This document shows, piece after piece, positions 5,198 to 42,544 of a DNA stretch of 42,544 bases. The notes under the pieces are model-generated. The model ran no database searches. It worked only from the letters and a program-made list of their open reading frames with translations, and had not been told where the DNA came from. A program made the position numbers and the translations under genes. This stretch comes from a virus, in IMG/VR virus record IMGVR_UViG_3300009678_000029, positions 1 through 42,544 of that record. One strand, written 5' to 3'. Positions within the stretch are counted from its first letter, which is position 1. Each line of letters opens with the position of its first letter.

Positions 5198-5545
5198 TTA
5201 CGCGAGGGTCAGGATGCTGGCGCCGAAATCGACCGTGAAGGTCTCTCCATCGAGCACTGTCACCGCGCTCCCGTAATCCCACCACAGGACGAGGGGATCC
5301 GCCGGTGAGGTCTGCGTGTCGTTGTAGAGCGGGATGTACTGCAGCGGCCCGAACGATCCACCCGACGCCGTCCAGACCACATCGACGCCCGTCAGCGTCG
5401 CCGTCCCCGTCGTCTCCGTCCAGCCGTTCTGTACGTCAGTACCCCCAGCAGGGTAGCCGTTCGCCGGCGTGATCTCGGCGAGGTCGGCCTTCACCGCATC
5501 GGCCGACGCGGACGGCACGGCGTTCGAGGCGTACACCTTGAGCAC
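5198..5545 (-). CDS. Hypothetical protein (115 aa from GTG 5545; the coding signal continues upstream, see findings)
   Basis: ORF track, GTG start. The 82 nt upstream are in-frame and show coding-like codon periodicity but have no start codon. Confidence 0.65.
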   Translation of the reverse strand: MLKVYASNAVPSASADAVKADLAEITPANGYPAGGTDVQNGWTETTGTATLTGVDVVWTASGGSFGPLQYIPLYNDTQTSPADPLVLWWDYGSAVTVLDGETFTVDFGASILTLA

Positions 5546-5627
5546 GTGCCCGGCAGCATCGAGGACATGCTTGCCGAGGCCGAGCTGCTCGACGAAATCC
5601 TGGAACTTGTTCGCGACGGCCGTATCG

Positions 5628-5846
5628 CTACCCGTCCTTTCGGATCAATCCGTCGAGGGCTTGGGCGACGACGATCTTTGGCCCGCCACCGTTCGCGGCG
5701 GCATCGTCGCGCTTGTTGGCGATGCGCTCGATCAGTCGCGTGGCTTCGGCGAGCGCACCGAGGATGAGCACCGTCTGATCGAGCGGTCCCTTGATCGCGA
5801 CGCGCCCCTGCTGGAGATCGTATTGGATGTGGAGCTCGAGAATCAT
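5628..5846 (-). CDS. Hypothetical protein (72 aa), first gene after late leader A
   Basis: ORF 5628..5867 (TTG); the ATG at 5846 is more plausible. It ends in GGG TAG next to the possible recoding site. Confidence 0.5.
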   Translation of the reverse strand: MILELHIQYDLQQGRVAIKGPLDQTVLILGALAEATRLIERIANKRDDAAANGGGPKIVVAQALDGLIRKDG

Positions 5847-5864
5847 CGCCTGATTTGCTCCGCG

Positions 5865-5910
5865 CAAAAAGAAACGAGGGGCCAGAGCGCTGACTGCGCT
5901 CCAGCCCCTC
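5865..5910 (-). terminator. Intrinsic terminator ending the early/int operon (also the hairpin of late leader A)
   Basis: Minus strand reads GAGGGGC-TG-GAGCGC-AGTCA-GCGCTC-TG-GCCCCTC, followed by GTTTCTTTTTG. Confidence 0.7.
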
Positions 5911-5966
5911 GCCGACCAGTGTGCCGACCTAGGGCCTCGTTTACTTCATGGCGTCGAATATAGCGA
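5904..5966 (-). promoter_or_regulatory. Late leader element, copy A: TCGCTATATTC box, AGGCCCTAGGTCG box, TCGGCGAGGGGC (5' arm of the hairpin)
   Basis: All three blocks recur in the same order and similar spacing at 23264-23324. TATATT is -10-like. Confidence 0.5.
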
Positions 5967-5978
5967 CTTTGCAGCGAC

Positions 5979-6206
5979 TTAGCCGAGCAGATCTCGGAGC
6001 CGGATGTCCACGATCACCTTGCAGCGAATGCAGCGGTAACTGAACAGGACCGTCTCCAACTCGTCATGGCTGAACCCGGCCTCGCGACGCCCGAGCAGGC
6101 TCGCCAGCACCGCCACGCCGGCGAGATGCCGATGCAACGGCACATGCGTGCGACCGGGGCAGCGACAACTGCGCTTGATCACGCGCGTCTCCGCGACGGC
6201 CGTCAC
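5979..6206 (-). CDS. Small zinc-ribbon-like protein (75 aa), last gene of the ATPase-nuclease cassette
   Basis: ORF track. CxC near the N-terminus (SCRCPG) and CxxC near the C-terminus (CIRCK). Start overlaps the stop of the nuclease gene. Confidence 0.55.
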   Translation of the reverse strand: MTAVAETRVIKRSCRCPGRTHVPLHRHLAGVAVLASLLGRREAGFSHDELETVLFSYRCIRCKVIVDIRLRDLLG

Positions 6207-6595
6207 CGCACCTCCAGTTGACGGGGCGTTGATGCGGTCCCGCTAGTCTCCGCGCCATGGACGGCGTGATCATCTTCGACCTGCCCGACTGGCCCGTGCA
6301 GATCGATCCAGTCCCGCAGCGACACGACGACGAGCGCATCCTGATCCAGGCACCGCGGCCGCTGCAGGATGACGACGCCGATCTTCGCCGGCGATCGCTC
6401 GGCCGCCTTCCGGCGGATCTTGTCGAGCCACTCGAGGACGTAGCCCGGGAACTGTGAGGCGCGGCTCTTCGCCTGGTAGCAGAACATGCCGTCCTCGAAG
6501 TCGGCCCCGTCCCGCTCGCCGGTGACGGGGATCCGCCGGGTCCCGAGTAGGACCGCCACGCGCCGCTCGAACGCCTTCCAGCGTGTGTCGCTCAC
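6203..6595 (-). CDS. Small PD-(D/E)XK-type nuclease, Hjc/resolvase-like (130 aa)
   Basis: Layout WKAFERRVAVLLG ... GADFEDG ... FCYQAKS ... GVVILQRP resembles the E...D...(E/Q)xK motif of archaeal-type Holliday junction resolvases. Start overlaps the ATPase stop. Confidence 0.55.
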   Translation of the reverse strand: MSDTRWKAFERRVAVLLGTRRIPVTGERDGADFEDGMFCYQAKSRASQFPGYVLEWLDKIRRKAAERSPAKIGVVILQRPRCLDQDALVVVSLRDWIDLHGPVGQVEDDHAVHGAETSGTASTPRQLEVR

Positions 6596-8340
6596 ACCGC
6601 ACCATCGAACAGCAGCTCGCTCGCTTTGACGCCGTCGCGATCGGCTTCGACGAGGCGCTTCGCGCCGAGCCGCTGCAGATACGTGTCCCGGCTCGAGCGC
6701 GCATAGCCTGTTATTTCACTGATGACGTCGCGGGCGACGGCTTTCGGGTAGTCCGCCACGACGATGTCGAGGATCTTCCGCTCGCCTTCGGGCAGCCGCC
6801 GGCGCCAATGCTCCAGGAGTTCGGCGCCGATCGGCAGCGGCTCGAAGTCCGGACCGAGCGCGGCGAGGCCTGCCGACGTTGCGAGCGCGCTCGTGCCGGC
6901 GACCTGGACCAGGCCCTTCTCGCTCAGGCGCTGCAGATACGTGTGGTGCGTCGACCGGCGGTAGCCGGTGAGGACGGTCAGCTGCTTGCGACTGCAGCCT
7001 TCCGGGTAATGCGCCACGGCGCGCAGGACGGCGGCTTCGCCCTTGGGGAGCGCGCCGTCAAAAACCTCCCGGGCGGGAGGGATCTGCCGAGCCGGGAGGG
7101 AAACGGTCGGCCTTTTTCCGGGGACCGGTTGGCGGACTGCAGCCGTCTGCACTGGCTTCGTGGCTCGGGCAATGGCGACGTCGATGCGCTCGAGCGCGTC
7201 CGTCAGGATCCTTCTGCCCTCCGTCATACGCTCCGCCACGCCACGCGCGTCCGCAAAGACCTGCTGAATCACGACGAGCGCCTGCTTGAGTCCGGTAAGG
7301 TGTTCCTCGGTCAGCATGGGTACGGCCACACGCTCGATCTTCGTCTCGACGCGCGGCTCGATCTTGACGGTGCCCTTCTTGGCGAGCTCGCGCTGCAAGC
7401 GACCGACCTGCTCGCGCAGCAGCTTCGGGTCCTCCGCCTTCGCCTTCTCGATCGTGGCCGCCATGTCAGTCCGGATCCGCTCGAGATCGATCGGCGCGAG
7501 CTCGCGGGCGACCGCCGCGGCGCCGACCTCCGGCGTGGCGGACGCGTTGAACGATCGCTTCTCGAGGATCCCGACGACCTCGGAGATCTCCAGCCACTCG
7601 GGGCTCCACACGTGCGGCCGCCCGGTCTTCAGCTTCGGCAGCTCGGCGCCGATGTCCTGGTCGGCGATCGCCTTGTCTTTGATCCACGACTCGATCGCCT
7701 TCCGCTCGTGGCTGCCGGTGGTGCGAAACACGAACAGCGTCTGCGCCAGATTGAGCGCCTTCTTGGAGACGTCCTGCGGCCGCTGGGTGATGAGCGACGT
7801 TCCAATGCCGAAGTTGCGGCCGATCTTCTGCATCCGGATGAACGCATGCTTCATGTGCTCCTCGCCGCGCTGCTCGTTCTCGGGGACGAATTCCTGGCAC
7901 TCCTCGAGGAACAGGTGCACGGCGCTCGGCGAGGCCTTCTTGCGAAAGAAGAACCGATCGGCGAAGCCGCGGGCGAAGCGCGCCTTGTCGGTGTCCGTCT
8001 CGAACTGCGAGACGTCCAGGATGGCCGAGATCGCGCGGTCGATGATGAGATCGGCGAGCAGCGCACCGCCCGTCGGCTCGAGCGGCACGTCGCCGTGCAG
8101 CCCGCCGAAGATCGGGATCGTGATGTCGCTCGGCCGCTTGCCGTCGCCGGCGAGGCGCAGGCCATACCACACGCCGACGGGATCCAGGACGATGAACTGC
8201 GCACCGGCGTCCCACATCAGCTCGGCGAGCTTCGAGGCGCCGTACGTCTTGCCGCTGCCCGTCGTGCCGATCCACGCGAGCTTCTGCGTCACGGCCTCGA
8301 CGGGCAGCGCGAGCTCGTCGGCGAGCTTGAGTTTCTTCAC
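6592..8340 (-). CDS. FtsK/HerA-superfamily P-loop ATPase (DUF87/HerA-like motifs) with coiled-coil linker and two C-terminal winged-helix repeats
   Basis: 582 aa. Walker A GTTGSGKT, FIVLDPVG, Walker B-like HLFLEECQEF, TSLITQRPQD. Two repeats of L-P-x-G-E...TGY-x-RS...TYLQRL...LV. The GTG start overlaps the int stop (GTGA). Confidence 0.8.
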   Translation of the reverse strand: MKKLKLADELALPVEAVTQKLAWIGTTGSGKTYGASKLAELMWDAGAQFIVLDPVGVWYGLRLAGDGKRPSDITIPIFGGLHGDVPLEPTGGALLADLIIDRAISAILDVSQFETDTDKARFARGFADRFFFRKKASPSAVHLFLEECQEFVPENEQRGEEHMKHAFIRMQKIGRNFGIGTSLITQRPQDVSKKALNLAQTLFVFRTTGSHERKAIESWIKDKAIADQDIGAELPKLKTGRPHVWSPEWLEISEVVGILEKRSFNASATPEVGAAAVARELAPIDLERIRTDMAATIEKAKAEDPKLLREQVGRLQRELAKKGTVKIEPRVETKIERVAVPMLTEEHLTGLKQALVVIQQVFADARGVAERMTEGRRILTDALERIDVAIARATKPVQTAAVRQPVPGKRPTVSLPARQIPPAREVFDGALPKGEAAVLRAVAHYPEGCSRKQLTVLTGYRRSTHHTYLQRLSEKGLVQVAGTSALATSAGLAALGPDFEPLPIGAELLEHWRRRLPEGERKILDIVVADYPKAVARDVISEITGYARSSRDTYLQRLGAKRLVEADRDGVKASELLFDGAV

Positions 8341-9554
8341 GGCTGTCCCCCCGAATGTCCCCCACTCTTCGGTGGGTTTTCGCCGGTTTCGATGGGTTCC
8401 TTCGGGTTCAGTCCGGCTTTAGCTTTCGGGGCCGTGCTCGGGCGGGCTTGACTACGGATCAAGAGGCTGGGAGTTCGAGTCTTCCTGGGCGCACTTGCAC
8501 TTACGAGGTCGTCGACCGCGGCTGTCCCCCGTGTTGTCCCCCATGATTGGAGCACGTGCGTGAGCCGGGTCTCGCACTCGTCGTAGATCCGCTCCGTCTC
8601 CTGCCAGCCGTAGTCGAGTTTCCCGCGCGCGTGCCCAAGCAAGGCCTCACGCCAGAGGAACGAGATCCCCGCCAGGTCGCACCAGAGCGCGAACGAATCG
8701 CGGCCGTCCTTCGGCCGAACGCCCACGCCGGCGCCGCGCAGCGCGCGCTGGAATTGCTGGAGCGTGCCGACGGGCTCGGGGATTGCTCCCAGAAGTGGGA
8801 CGATACGATCGCGCGCGTCGGCTTTCGTGCCCCTGATGTGTAGCCGGCCGTCCTCGATGGCCCACTTGTTGGCGAAGTACTCGTCGGGCAACATGCCCGA
8901 GCAGCAGAGCGCCCACCACATCGCGCCGACGTCGCCGCCGAGCGTCTCACGGATCGCCGCCGCTTCGTCGGGCCGCTGCGGATTTTTCGCGCGCTTCACC
9001 GGTTCGGGCAGCGGCTCGAGCGTGGCGAGCTCGGTGGCTAGTGCATGCTCGTTCGTGATCGTGTCGCGGAGGAAGGCACGCAGGTAGGCGATCGCGCGAT
9101 TGAACATAGCGCCCTGCTTCAGGCTATCACAGGCGGCGCGATAGAGAACGCAGGCCTGCCGGAGCTCGGCGAGCGTCGCGGGCGTGCTGGTGCGCTCGAG
9201 ACCCGCGCGCGCCCAGGCCGCGAACTTCCGATACGCGAGACTCGGCTTCTTGAGCCGCCAGGCCTCGAACGTCTCGCCGAACGGGAGCGCGTGCTCTGGT
9301 GTTGGGAGCCGTTGCCACGCGCCGGCGCGATAGACCGTCCAGACCTGGCGCAAGCTGATGCGGCCGGCGCGCACCGCGCGCAGCAGTTCGTCGGCGCGGC
9401 CCGACTCGAACAGGACGCGCAGCATTTCCTTGAGCCGCGGCACCATCGCGGGATCCGCGAAGCCGCTGGCCCGCTCGATCTGGCCAACGCCGCGGAATCC
9501 GATGCGGACGATCGGCGTGCCCCGCCCGTGCGACTTCCGAATCATTGGCGTCAC
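8337..9554 (-). CDS. int: Tyrosine integrase (divergent), with a C-terminal tail encoded by the attP region
   Basis: 405 aa. HIRGTKADARDRIVPL (Lys hairpin), DGRDSFALW (box II Arg), LLGHA, downstream Tyr (KLDYGW or ERIYDE). Preceded by an excisionase-like gene; attP lies inside its 3' end. Confidence 0.8.
   Translation of the reverse strand: MTPMIRKSHGRGTPIVRIGFRGVGQIERASGFADPAMVPRLKEMLRVLFESGRADELLRAVRAGRISLRQVWTVYRAGAWQRLPTPEHALPFGETFEAWRLKKPSLAYRKFAAWARAGLERTSTPATLAELRQACVLYRAACDSLKQGAMFNRAIAYLRAFLRDTITNEHALATELATLEPLPEPVKRAKNPQRPDEAAAIRETLGGDVGAMWWALCCSGMLPDEYFANKWAIEDGRLHIRGTKADARDRIVPLLGAIPEPVGTLQQFQRALRGAGVGVRPKDGRDSFALWCDLAGISFLWREALLGHARGKLDYGWQETERIYDECETRLTHVLQSWGTTRGTAAVDDLVSASAPRKTRTPSLLIRSQARPSTAPKAKAGLNPKEPIETGENPPKSGGHSGGQP
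8344..8363 (+). repeat. Candidate integrase arm-type sites (P arm): TGTCCCCC x2, 12-nt phasing
   Basis: TGTCCCCC at 8344-8351 and 8356-8363. The same pair with the same spacing recurs at 8523-8542 on the other side of the core. Confidence 0.55.
8447..8493 (+). other. attP core: 3' half of a tRNA-Arg(ACG) (anticodon arm, variable loop, T arm, 3' acceptor strand, discriminator A)
   Basis: CTTGA-CTACGGA-TCAAG (U33, anticodon ACG), AGGCT, GGGAG-TTCGAGT-CTTCC (T54 T55 C56 A58, G53:C61), TGGGCGC-A. There is no matching 5' acceptor or D arm upstream, so this is a fragment. Confidence 0.8.
8523..8542 (+). repeat. Candidate integrase arm-type sites (P' arm): TGTCCCCC x2, 12-nt phasing
   Basis: TGTCCCCC at 8523-8530 and 8535-8542; both pairs are preceded by GGC. 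Confidence 0.55.
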
Positions 9555-9802
9555 GACTCGCCCCGCAGCGCGGCGAGTGCGGCAATTCCGGGTGAGAATG
9601 CGTCAGCGCGATCGCGGGCTGTCTGGCCCGCAGCAAGGATCGCCGCCGCTACACGGGGCGCGAGTTCGTTCGCGAGGTATGCGGGCCACCCGTGGTGTGG
9701 ACCATCGTAGCCGGGCGGCGGCTCCCACTCTAAGATTTCTGCCGTGCTGCGACCCAGCACTTGAGCCAATGTCTCCGCCACCTGCTGCTCGAATTCGGTC
9801 AT
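9551..9802 (-). CDS. Hypothetical protein (83 aa)
   Basis: The internal ATG at 9802 of ORF 9551..9826 overlaps the upstream stop; its stop overlaps the int start. Confidence 0.5.
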   Translation of the reverse strand: MTEFEQQVAETLAQVLGRSTAEILEWEPPPGYDGPHHGWPAYLANELAPRVAAAILAAGQTARDRADAFSPGIAALAALRGES

Positions 9803-10005
9803 GCCACCTCCTGCTGCTTGGCCCACTTCAAAACGGTCTCCCGCAAATAGCGCCGCCGCGGCCGCTTCTGTCCATGCCCGATCGTGAGGTACGGAATCGG
9901 CAAGGCGCGCAGGGTGTCGACGTCGACCTTGAGCAACGCGGCCGCCTGCTCGGACGTGAGGACGGGCTCGTCACCAACGGCAGCCCCCGTCACGAGGCTC
10001 GCCAC
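9799..10005 (-). CDS. Excisionase-type HTH DNA-binding protein
   Basis: 68 aa. LTSEQAAALLKVDVDTLRAL...RRYLRETVLKWAK resembles excisionase/MerR-like HTH. Located upstream of int. Confidence 0.65.
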   Translation of the reverse strand: MASLVTGAAVGDEPVLTSEQAAALLKVDVDTLRALPIPYLTIGHGQKRPRRRYLRETVLKWAKQQEVA

Positions 10006-10286
10006 AACCGCGCCTTGTAGCCACTCGGCGTGAGCCGCGTCTCAACGAGCCGCTGGACCTGGCCCAGGCGCCCCAGTTCGGACATGCGCCGGGCGACCGC
10101 GATCGGATCCAAACCGCAGACGTCTGCAATCTCGACGTAGGTCCGCGCGATCCCGTCCGCGAGTGCAGCGAGGATCTTCGCGCGGTGTGCAGCCGCGCCG
10201 TCGATCATGCCGTTGGCAGCTTCGACGGACGTCTCCGGATCGACGCGCCGGACGCCGGGCAGCAGGGCGAGCTGCTCGTCGCTCAT
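9990..10286 (-). CDS. Winged-helix (MarR/ArsR-like) DNA-binding protein (98 aa)
   Basis: ATG at 10286 overlaps the upstream stop. AHRAKILAALADGIARTYVEIADVCGLDPIAVARRMSELGRLGQV. Confidence 0.6.
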   Translation of the reverse strand: MSDEQLALLPGVRRVDPETSVEAANGMIDGAAAHRAKILAALADGIARTYVEIADVCGLDPIAVARRMSELGRLGQVQRLVETRLTPSGYKARLWRAS

Positions 10287-42272: not shown

Positions 42273-42544
42273 GGTTCAGATCTTCCAGGGACTTCTGCTT
42301 GCCCACCGGGATCCCCATCCGTTGCCGTGACCAGGGGCTGATGCCGAACCGGTCCTCGAGGCGGCGGATCTCTGACTCGAACGCGCGCGCCTGTTTCAGG
42401 ATCGGGTTGATCACCGGCTGCCCCTTCGAGCCCTTCACATACGGGCACTTCCGGTAGGCGCGGTAGGACCGATCGCGCTCGTCGTACAGTCGGAACAGGT
42501 GGCGCAATGTCGGCATGTCCACCGTCTCGATGAACCACGCCATC
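42232..42544 (-). CDS. terS: Terminase small subunit (P27-like), C-terminal part; the N-terminus lies at 124-284 across the circular junction
   Basis: ...GQPVINPILKQARAFESEIRRLEDRFGISPWSRQRMG... is typical of P27-family small terminases. The ORF is open at the window edge. Confidence 0.8.
   Translation of the reverse strand, partial: MAWFIETVDMPTLRHLFRLYDERDRSYRAYRKCPYVKGSKGQPVINPILKQARAFESEIRRLEDRFGISPWSRQRMGIPVGKQKSLEDLNHDLDDSDDDDPRA
42422..42544. repeat. Terminal direct repeat, copy 2 (identical to 1-123)
   Basis: Direct comparison of both window ends. Confidence 0.95.

Follow-up and report, generated by a model that had tools for sequence, protein, structure and literature searches.

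Why should the integrase gene of a phage run on, without a stop codon, through one half of a tRNA gene that lies on the other strand? The question is raised by the window analysed here, the whole stretch of 42,544 nucleotides (nt) in IMG/VR virus record IMGVR_UViG_3300009678_000029, in which the integrase open reading frame (ORF), int, occupies 8337-9554 of the minus strand (405 residues, no earlier in-frame stop) and carries in codons 337-405 a fragment of a tRNA-Arg(ACG) gene flanked by pairs of a short repeat. An earlier note on this DNA, made from the sequence alone, proposed that these elements form a phage attachment site (attP) inside int, and that integration into a host tRNA-Arg gene would exchange the end of the integrase (Int) and uncouple it from the genes that follow. 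We consider it probable that a temperate tailed phage has its complete attP at 8337-8545, that the core of this site corresponds to the host tRNA-Arg(ACG) gene in its 3' part and is used by a lambda-type Int, and that the Int tail translated across the site is a passenger.

The elements of the tRNA fragment are all where the earlier note had placed them. On the plus strand, 8447-8493 comprises an anticodon arm (CTTGA/CTACGGA/TCAAG, anticodon ACG), the variable loop AGGCT, a T arm (GGGAG/TTCGAGT/CTTCC), the acceptor 3' strand TGGGCGC and a closing A. The 5' half is missing, as that note had also said: ARAGORN finds no complete tRNA in the whole window, and the Rfam tRNA model matches 8434-8493 of the plus strand without a D arm (26.1 bits, E=0.003, gathering score of 29 not reached), as expected from a fragment that represents the 3' part of a tRNA. 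Identity to the host tRNA covers 48 nt, 8446-8493 of the plus strand, beginning at tRNA position 26 and taking in the anticodon stem and the T arm as far as discriminator base A73, with its left edge on the D-stem side and its right edge at the discriminator. This core lies antisense to int in codons 354-370 (8545 being codon 337 and 8340 codon 405), and not one substitution separates the core of the window from that of its relative L005.

Just left of the core, GTGCTCG (8434-8440) pairs with the acceptor strand TGGGCGC (8487-8493) by G-C and G-U pairs, and for this reason Rfam aligns 8434-8493 as a mini-tRNA that lacks the D arm. The other free forms keep a GCACGG block left of the core, and this GCACGG/GTGCTCG block probably serves as a core flank or a site for an accessory factor and not as an RNA.

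Such a fragment might also be what is left of a decayed phage tRNA gene, or a chance resemblance, with the long int ORF an artefact of assembly or sequencing. The sub-threshold Rfam score and the negative ARAGORN result would agree with this, as would the absence of the exact core from the IMG/VR viral contigs. Host genomes tell strongly the other way. The exact 47-nt core occurs in 15 contigs of a species-representative genome collection, all of them Gemmatimonadales genome bins and each time within a genuine tRNA-Arg(ACG) gene, so that the search of host genomes which the earlier note had called for returned the target that it had named. All 15 are empty bacterial attachment sites (attB; loci L006-L020). 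They lie in a tRNA cluster of conserved order, Ala-Gly-Met-Val-Arg(ACG)-Pro(CGG)-Arg(CCG), in which tRNA-Pro(CGG) starts 5-16 nt downstream of tRNA-Arg(ACG) in most hosts (e.g. L007 6281-6434) and is followed in most by tRNA-Arg(CCG). The host site with no tRNA-Pro downstream (L009) holds no integrated element, and at L018 the contig merely ends inside the tRNA. The GC content of the window, 66.6%, is consistent with Gemmatimonadales, and the host is likely a soil bacterium of this order, for which a limited literature search found no described temperate phage. The T stem adds a further detail: it reads GGGAG/CTTCC in the window and GGGGG/CCTCC in two integrated relatives (L002 and L022), a paired change which indicates that each element mirrors the real tRNA of its own host.

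At three host sites (L012, L014 and L019) the spacer between tRNA-Arg(ACG) and tRNA-Pro measures 48-96 nt instead of 5-16 nt. Near its start it contains TGCACT in L012 and L019 and CTCACT in L014, similar to the phage sequence CTTGCACTT found right of the core, and these long spacers may be the scars of earlier integration.

Free and integrated forms of related elements part company at precisely the predicted place. L021 is a free 42.6-kb phage with an Int 59% identical to that of the window, and L022 is the same phage adjoining host genes; the two are identical up to ...CCGTAGTCA, beyond which the free form continues into the phage arm and the integrated form into the 5' half of the tRNA. A second pair, L072 and L077, is 100% identical over 553 nt and splits at the same point, the int tail changing from SSGSTARK...GHSGGQEP in the phage form to ALYPVELWARV after the swap. 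In L002 and L003 a complete tRNA-Arg(ACG) lies within the int ORF on the opposite strand; the host genes for tRNA-Val, Met, Gly and Ala come next in L002, and the same cluster stands just downstream of the int stop in L022. Roughly 20 metagenome loci have int running antisense through the full tRNA and ending in ...LLIRSQA followed by LYPVELWA, and in many of them the tblastn match to the Int of the window ends at query residue 370. In a protein alignment the homologues share APR(K/R)TRTPSLLIRSQA, the antisense translation of the tRNA 3' part, after which they fall into two tail classes, the phage tail RPST...GGHSGGQP and LYPVELWA..., the latter being the antisense of the tRNA 5' half.

Members of this Int family are therefore found recombined at exactly tRNA-Arg(ACG), with an intact tRNA rebuilt next to int. 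The difference between free and integrated forms at the Int C-terminus, which the earlier note had predicted, is borne out by the DNA junction of L021 and L022, by the tails of L072 and L077 and by the approximately 20 copies ending in LYPVELWA. The int-proximal junction with its rebuilt tRNA was recovered in L022, L077, L002, L003 and these other loci; within the 10-kb flanks that were retrieved, no distal junction was found.

Two facts weigh against extending this account to the window. No lysogen of the phage itself was found, and its integration is inferred from relatives whose Int is 53-59% identical together with the exact attB. The int gene of L072 and L077 matches only residues 222-404, so that it is 5'-truncated, and the recombination of that pair may have been the work of an Int acting in trans. 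The free state of the phage of the window is on record: all nine contigs that carry the exact Int (402 residues, from the start chosen by gene callers 3 codons downstream of ours) are in the attP form, which is the only form that an exact-sequence look-up can return because an integrated copy would encode a different tail.

The same contigs bear on the possibility of an artefact. The att region, 8300-8600, is 100% identical in the six further contigs that were compared (nine are on record with this Int, from JGI, ENA and Logan), so the open int frame is not a sequencing error and the correction that might have introduced an earlier stop has not materialised; in the six places examined the ATPase gene follows directly, with the overlap. 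The same read-through architecture is found in the homologues P0002, P0003, P0004 and P0006. Set beside the exact matches in 15 host tRNA genes and the free and integrated pairs that split at the very edge of the tRNA stretch, these observations make a pseudogene or an artefact hardly credible, and we regard it as effectively refuted.

Some of the integrated relatives are not phages but integrative conjugative elements equipped for type IV secretion: L001 (1-9000) and L002 (1-3300) carry genes for VirB4, TrbL, VirB8, VirB9/CagX, VirB10/TrbI, VirD4/TraG and a TraF peptidase. A deletion in L001 joins int, after ...RLRA, straight to the T arm, and the 3' end of the tRNA is destroyed.

What kind of enzyme would act on such a site? 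Judged by its motifs and predicted fold, the int product is a divergent lambda-type tyrosine integrase, with the tyrosine nucleophile and the Arg-II and His-III motifs present. It matches the PHROG_1 integrase family (E=5e-7) and no Pfam family even at E<=10; PF00589 (Phage_integrase) is reached by just 2 of the 27 family members. A profile of the family, built from 27 homologues, matches the XerA structure 4a8e (6e-5) and aligns KDGR285, LLGH308 and Y315 with it, residues that are invariant in all 27. The AlphaFold model has a mean predicted local distance difference test (pLDDT) score of 82, exceeding 85 as far as about residue 337 and falling below 50 over residues 344-405, and it begins with a lambda-like domain of beta-sheet and helix; its top Foldseek matches, at probability 1.0, are full-length lambda Int, XerA, Brujita Int and Tn1549 Int. 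The folded part, residues 1-337, is encoded by 8544-9554, and both arm pairs and the core are predicted to lie in a disordered C-terminal extension, past the last helix of the catalytic domain.

In the alignment the canonical R...HxxR...Y tetrad appears incomplete. GLRVSE of XerA aligns to G-M-L222-P-D-E (Int residues 220-225), and the position of Arg-I is occupied by Leu, Gly or Asn across the family; the His-II position is K282 in the window and Lys, Tyr or His across the family. The family thus seems to have no Arg-I at the canonical position, for which the invariant R248 and R250 might compensate. IntDOT of CTnDOT is a known precedent for a missing Arg-I. Tblastn with Int gave no match in 50,697 GenBank phage records or in PLSDB plasmids, and a protein scan of IMG/VR returned 3 loci only.

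One homologue and one sister clade extend this picture. The 539-residue P0006 (L112 221-1840) has an in-frame insertion of about 130 residues with a T5orf172/MUG113 (GIY-YIG-like) domain, placed between the catalytic domain and the proximal arm sites, its attP and stop/start overlap being otherwise intact. A sister clade (P0009, P0015, P0016, P0020 and P0023) has a conserved ...RS..LT.AQAA tail, and in L024 (10001-11108) and L025 int lies 13 nt upstream of an EPSP synthase gene (aroA), and no tRNA is close by; the attB of this clade may be another one, in a protein gene, that is again read through by int.

Where on the core this enzyme would cut is suggested by the extent of the tRNA identity. 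In five free forms its left edge lies within the 5' strand of the anticodon stem or immediately ahead of it, which places attP in the anticodon-centred class of tDNA attachment sites. Strand exchange would then take place across the 7-nt anticodon loop CTACGGA (8452-8458, plus strand), and Int would bind the inverted halves of the anticodon stem, CTTGA (8447-8451) and TCAAG (8459-8463), as its predicted core-type sites. From there, the N-terminal domain would bridge to putative arm-type sites that read GGGGGACA on the int strand, one pair of them lying 29 nt from the core and its counterpart, across the core, at a constant 104 nt.

These pairs, which on the plus strand read TGTCCCCC, are present as the earlier note described them, with a 12-nt phasing at 8344/8356 and 8523/8535. 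The int-proximal arm (8519-8543, plus strand) holds putative arm-type sites at 8523-8530 and 8535-8542, in int codons 338-344; the int-distal arm (8340-8364) holds them at 8344-8351 and 8356-8363, and is separated from the core by a spacer (8365-8445, Int residues 371-397) with five C(C)GAA(A/G) repeats and a conserved GCACGGNCCCGAAA block on the int strand. Each arm is one copy of a 25-nt direct repeat, CGGCTGTCCCCC-N4-TGTCCCCCA, that contains one pair. The octamer occurs six times in the window against 1.38 expected, four of these within 200 bp (8344, 8356, 8523 and 8535), and the paired arrangement TGTCCCCC-N4-TGTCCCCC is found in these two places only, against 0.01 expected.

Relatives with an Int 40-83% identical keep the arrangement. 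Their proximal arm has G[GC]GGGACA twice at 12-nt phasing between the catalytic domain and the core, at a variable distance from the core, and pairs are kept on both sides of the core, the distal one in L005, L110, L112, L072 and L021. From the core to the end of the distal sites there are exactly 104 nt in six free forms, including L021, in which this arm is non-coding; the invariant length points to a constraint on the DNA.

The repeats could instead be sites for another factor such as an excisionase or a host bending protein, a Shine-Dalgarno signal, or a by-product of Gly-rich coding. The distal pair does precede the ATPase start codon by 7-20 nt, in the aligned proteins the motif is translated as GG(T/Q/H) repeats, and on the int strand a G-run 7 nt upstream of the ATPase GTG could serve that gene as a Shine-Dalgarno sequence. 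We nevertheless judge it very unlikely that the pairs are anything other than Int arm sites. They flank the core in direct orientation and at fixed positions, as arm sites do, and the Int model, with its lambda-like N-terminal domain, aligns to full-length lambda Int. No start codon follows the proximal pair, and in L021 the distal pair is conserved although it is non-coding and no gene follows for about 300 nt; a mere Shine-Dalgarno signal or coding by-product can be rejected on these grounds.

A phage with a different integrase adds to the case for arm sites. L097 (3572-4850) has an ATPase 86% identical to that of the window, and at the same genome position its int-attP module has been swapped for one with an integrase of 344 residues (same broad family, different subfamily), an intergenic 3' fragment that resembles tRNA-Lys(CTT), and repeats on either side, CCAACATTCTCCC(G/A)CACC, unlike those of the window. 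The int and ATPase genes are 232 nt apart in L097 and do not overlap. This looks like a modular exchange of integration specificity, and a different Int with a different flanking repeat is what one would expect if arm-type sites co-evolve with the integrase that uses them.

If Int acts in this way, an integrated copy would start with the host tRNA 5' half and the core, followed by int, which points toward the tRNA, and by the main body of the prophage, and would close with the ATPase gene, the distal arm, a second core and host tRNA-Pro. The attachment site next to int, with the rebuilt tRNA (attL), is expected to read ...ATAGAGCG + CTTGACTACGGATCAAGAGGCTGGGAGTTCGAGTCTTCCTGGGCGCA + CTTGCACTTACGAGGTCG, and that at the other end (attR) ...GGCCGTGCTCGGGCGGG + core CTTGACTACGGATCAAGAGGCTGGGAGTTCGAGTCTTCCTGGGCGCA + host spacer + CGGGGCGTAGCGCAG, the last being tRNA-Pro. 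In the lysogen int would run antisense through the tRNA gene, and the block from the ATPase gene to the terminase would, from the geometry, stand at the other end of the prophage. The exchange of the Int end that the earlier note foresaw is upheld, and its numbers shift by one: with 48 nt of identity, residues 1-370 rather than 1-369 would be kept, and 35 codons rather than about 36 replaced. Residues 371-405 would give way to 13-31 host-encoded residues (LYPVELWAR...), the sequence after residue 370 being LYPVELWARNGRY. When the int of the window is spliced in silico onto 14 complete host sites, the prophage Int is 383-401 residues long and ends in LYPVELWAR plus 4-22 residues. An insertion of 42 kb would also separate tRNA-Pro(CGG) and tRNA-Arg(CCG) from the upstream part of the host cluster.

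Does the exchanged tail matter to the phage? The location of the att elements within int codons 337 to 405, the lack of an earlier stop and the GTGA overlap with the ATPase gene (8337-8340, minus strand, where the int TGA overlaps the GTG start) are all as the earlier note had them. The functional weight that it gave to the swap is another matter, and finds no support in the predicted disorder of the tail, its neutral evolution, the non-coding arm of L021 or the 232-nt gap of L097. Between the window and L005, the ratio of non-synonymous to synonymous substitution rates (dN/dS) is 0.17 over the body (residues 1-335) and 0.99 over the tail (residues 371-405). Over ten pairs from five lineages, substitutions at codon positions 1, 2 and 3 number 113, 98 and 115 in the tail and 33, 28 and 108 in the body. 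As a protein, the tail appears to evolve neutrally. Its ends vary (GGHSGGQP, GGHAGGHE, AGFEVGQ) and show no tag-like conserved C-terminus. Our best judgement is that the 60-70 residues past the catalytic domain are a disordered passenger of attP DNA rather than a functional domain of Int, and that their exchange would have little or no effect on the enzyme.

The rival is that attP within int is a true integration-state switch like that of Mx8, in which the free and prophage tails alter the activity or stability of Int and translation across attP drives the ATPase and late block, by stop/start coupling or by avoiding Rho-dependent polarity, the block being read from upstream promoters in the circular genome only. 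This rival has points in its favour that weigh against a passenger. Across attP, int stays open in each of the five read-through lineages, compared with about 40% of alternative frames; an NTGA overlap of the int stop with the next start is kept in the same five, although the gene that follows differs (a HerA ATPase in the window and L110, unrelated genes in L005 and L112, not identified in L072); and the dN/dS of the tail rests on 35 codons. All phage genes are on one strand, which makes read-through from int to the ATPase gene geometrically possible, and Mx8 offers the precedent of a recombinant int with altered properties (PMC6070905). The open frame and the overlaps could reflect selection for translation across attP.

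Other relatives do without any of this. The int gene of L021 ends 81 nt short of the core end, its counterpart of the distal arm encodes no protein, and its Int of 348 residues is unchanged between the free form and L022; in L040 the int stop falls inside the core; and L097, as described above, has no read-through. The five lineages share ancestry and are not independent tests, and the constancy of the 104-nt arm alone accounts for the kept reading frame, since an invariant spacing suffices to ensure that the frame is never shifted. With a tail that is neutral in evolution and predicted to be disordered, we think a functional switch unlikely and the passenger more likely. Any dependence on integration state would more likely come from the changed context of transcription and translation than from the peptide. 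The overlap of int with attP may have a regulatory role, one to which the evolutionary signal gives no support.

A stronger form of this idea holds that the read-through and the stop/start overlap have been selected as a sensor of integration state, with consequences in both the circular genome and the lysogen. If so, ribosomes in the circular genome would cross attP and hand over to the HerA-ATPase and late block, linking that block to the early operon, and in the lysogen int would run head-on into a strongly transcribed tRNA operon, silencing int and disconnecting the ATPase block; the insertion would at the same time sever tRNA-Pro(CGG) and tRNA-Arg(CCG) from the promoter of their operon. 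We give this version, with both its consequences, little credence. A scan of 7900-10100 revealed no sigma-70 promoter, neither a candidate that points outward and could serve the host tRNAs nor an internal one for the ATPase gene.

The passenger tail that we prefer belongs to a complete phage genome. Positions 1-123 repeat 42422-42544 exactly, which indicates that the genome, of about 42.4 kb, is closed, being either circular or terminally redundant. All ORFs of the window that are confidently coding are on the minus strand, and these encode a large terminase, portal, major head protein, tape-measure protein, ParB-like protein and RecE-like exonuclease. Upstream of int, 9799-10005 (minus strand) encodes a protein of 68 residues that matches Pfam HTH_17 (E=1e-4) and the PHROG_66 excisionase family (E=0.005). 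It is a candidate recombination directionality factor and would act in our scheme as the probable excisionase; an HTH_17 gene stands directly before int in L021, L022 and L024 as well.

Beyond attP, the first gene (6592-8340, minus strand) encodes a HerA/FtsK-like P-loop ATPase of 582 residues with C-terminal winged-helix domains, matching Pfam DUF87/HerA, HTH_IclR and MarR_2 and also HerA structures in the PDB. More than 1,100 full-length homologues were found, many of them on contigs of 40-50 kb and usually just upstream of a block of small genes and terminase. Long contigs with a homologue showed no prophage end beside it: in L098, a 247-kb contig, the homologue is not adjacent to an att site, and in L097 it adjoins the different int-attP module described above. 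This HerA-like ATPase with two winged-helix domains seems to be a widespread, uncharacterised phage module. Its stop is overlapped by an ORF of 130 residues (6203-6595, minus strand) with no Pfam match and a weak resolvase-like match (PHROG_2002, E=0.0017); a homologue follows the ATPase in L097. Of the "ATPase-nuclease cassette" in the earlier note, the ATPase therefore stands as HerA-like, and the nuclease is reduced to that weak match. In L021 (3202-3274) and L023 (2662-2734) ARAGORN also reports an odd tRNA-like gene whose "anticodon" has only 2 nt (tc), with an Acb2/Tad1-hairpin gene coming next downstream.

These results tie an uncultured 42-kb soil phage to a host order, Gemmatimonadales, with an exact attB/attP pair in hand. 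A divergent Int family common to phages and conjugative elements and directed at one tRNA-Arg target should be useful for host prediction and for calling prophage boundaries, and might provide an integration tool for high-GC bacteria. More generally, comparison of these sequences suggests that an attP inside int can be a neutral outcome of constraints on attP DNA in a GC-rich, stop-poor genome, a possibility that bears on the regulatory meaning assigned to such overlaps.

Among known systems, lambda provides the model for the enzyme. The window resembles it in the full-length fold of Int, in a short core flanked by arm repeats and in a helix-turn-helix, excisionase-like gene upstream of int. 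Lambda differs in having its attP outside int and in using an attB other than a tRNA gene. The Int family of the window also differs in that most of its members (25/27) have no Pfam Phage_integrase match and in that Arg-I is apparently missing.

In archaeal integrases of the SSV type the att site lies in int and the target is a tRNA gene, and integration of SSV1 splits int in two and so disrupts it (PMC5861418). Some members of the window's family share with them a Lys at His-II, and the SSV1 catalytic domain is a weak Foldseek match to our model (E ~0.03-0.05). By contrast with SSV1, the window would exchange only a disordered C-terminal extension and leave the catalytic domain whole. The mycobacteriophages BPs and Brujita, the kind of phage to which the earlier note had likened this locus, carry attP in their repressor gene, where integration removes a C-terminal degradation tag that is essential to the switch between lysis and lysogeny, and their integrases are without arm-binding domains or arm sites (PMC3694055). 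The likeness holds insofar as attP is inside an ORF, the viral and prophage C-termini differ and Brujita Int is among the fold matches; it fails in that the split gene of the window is an integrase and not a repressor, that putative arm sites are present and that there is no tag-like conserved C-terminus, and a nearer precedent exists.

The use of the tRNA itself is familiar from the Islander collection, in which 2,083 islands belong to the anticodon-centred class (class A), the target being regenerated and a displaced 3' fragment marking the far end (PMC4383910). The window, like these, carries the tRNA 3' part from the anticodon stem onward; it differs in that the integrase ORF encloses both arms as well as the segment that regenerates the tRNA, and that the target is in the middle of a tight tRNA cluster.

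The nearest precedent is the Myxococcus phage Mx8, in which attP lies within int and integration makes a recombinant int with a new 3' end and a reported effect on Int activity (PMC6070905). As in the window, attP is within int in Mx8 and Mx9, and in Mx8, likewise a GC-rich phage, a tRNA 3' part is antisense to int: in its genome (AF396866) we find a T-arm and acceptor fragment at about 6405-6469, inside int (5208-6809). The differences are nonetheless considerable. The two integrases have no detectable homology (BLASTP E=2.5); the tail beyond the core is about 110 residues in Mx8 and 35 in the window; the Mx8 core is apparently T-arm/acceptor, from the position of the fragment, whereas that of the window is centred on the anticodon loop; and the tail of the window looks neutral, whereas in Mx8 an effect on Int activity is reported. 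On this comparison of sequences Mx8 is the closest precedent, and the window is Mx8-like in layout but outside the Mx8 Int lineage. The attP-in-int layout is thus already known from Mx8; what is new is that it arose outside the myxophages with a non-homologous integrase, in a highly divergent integrase family and a new host phylum.

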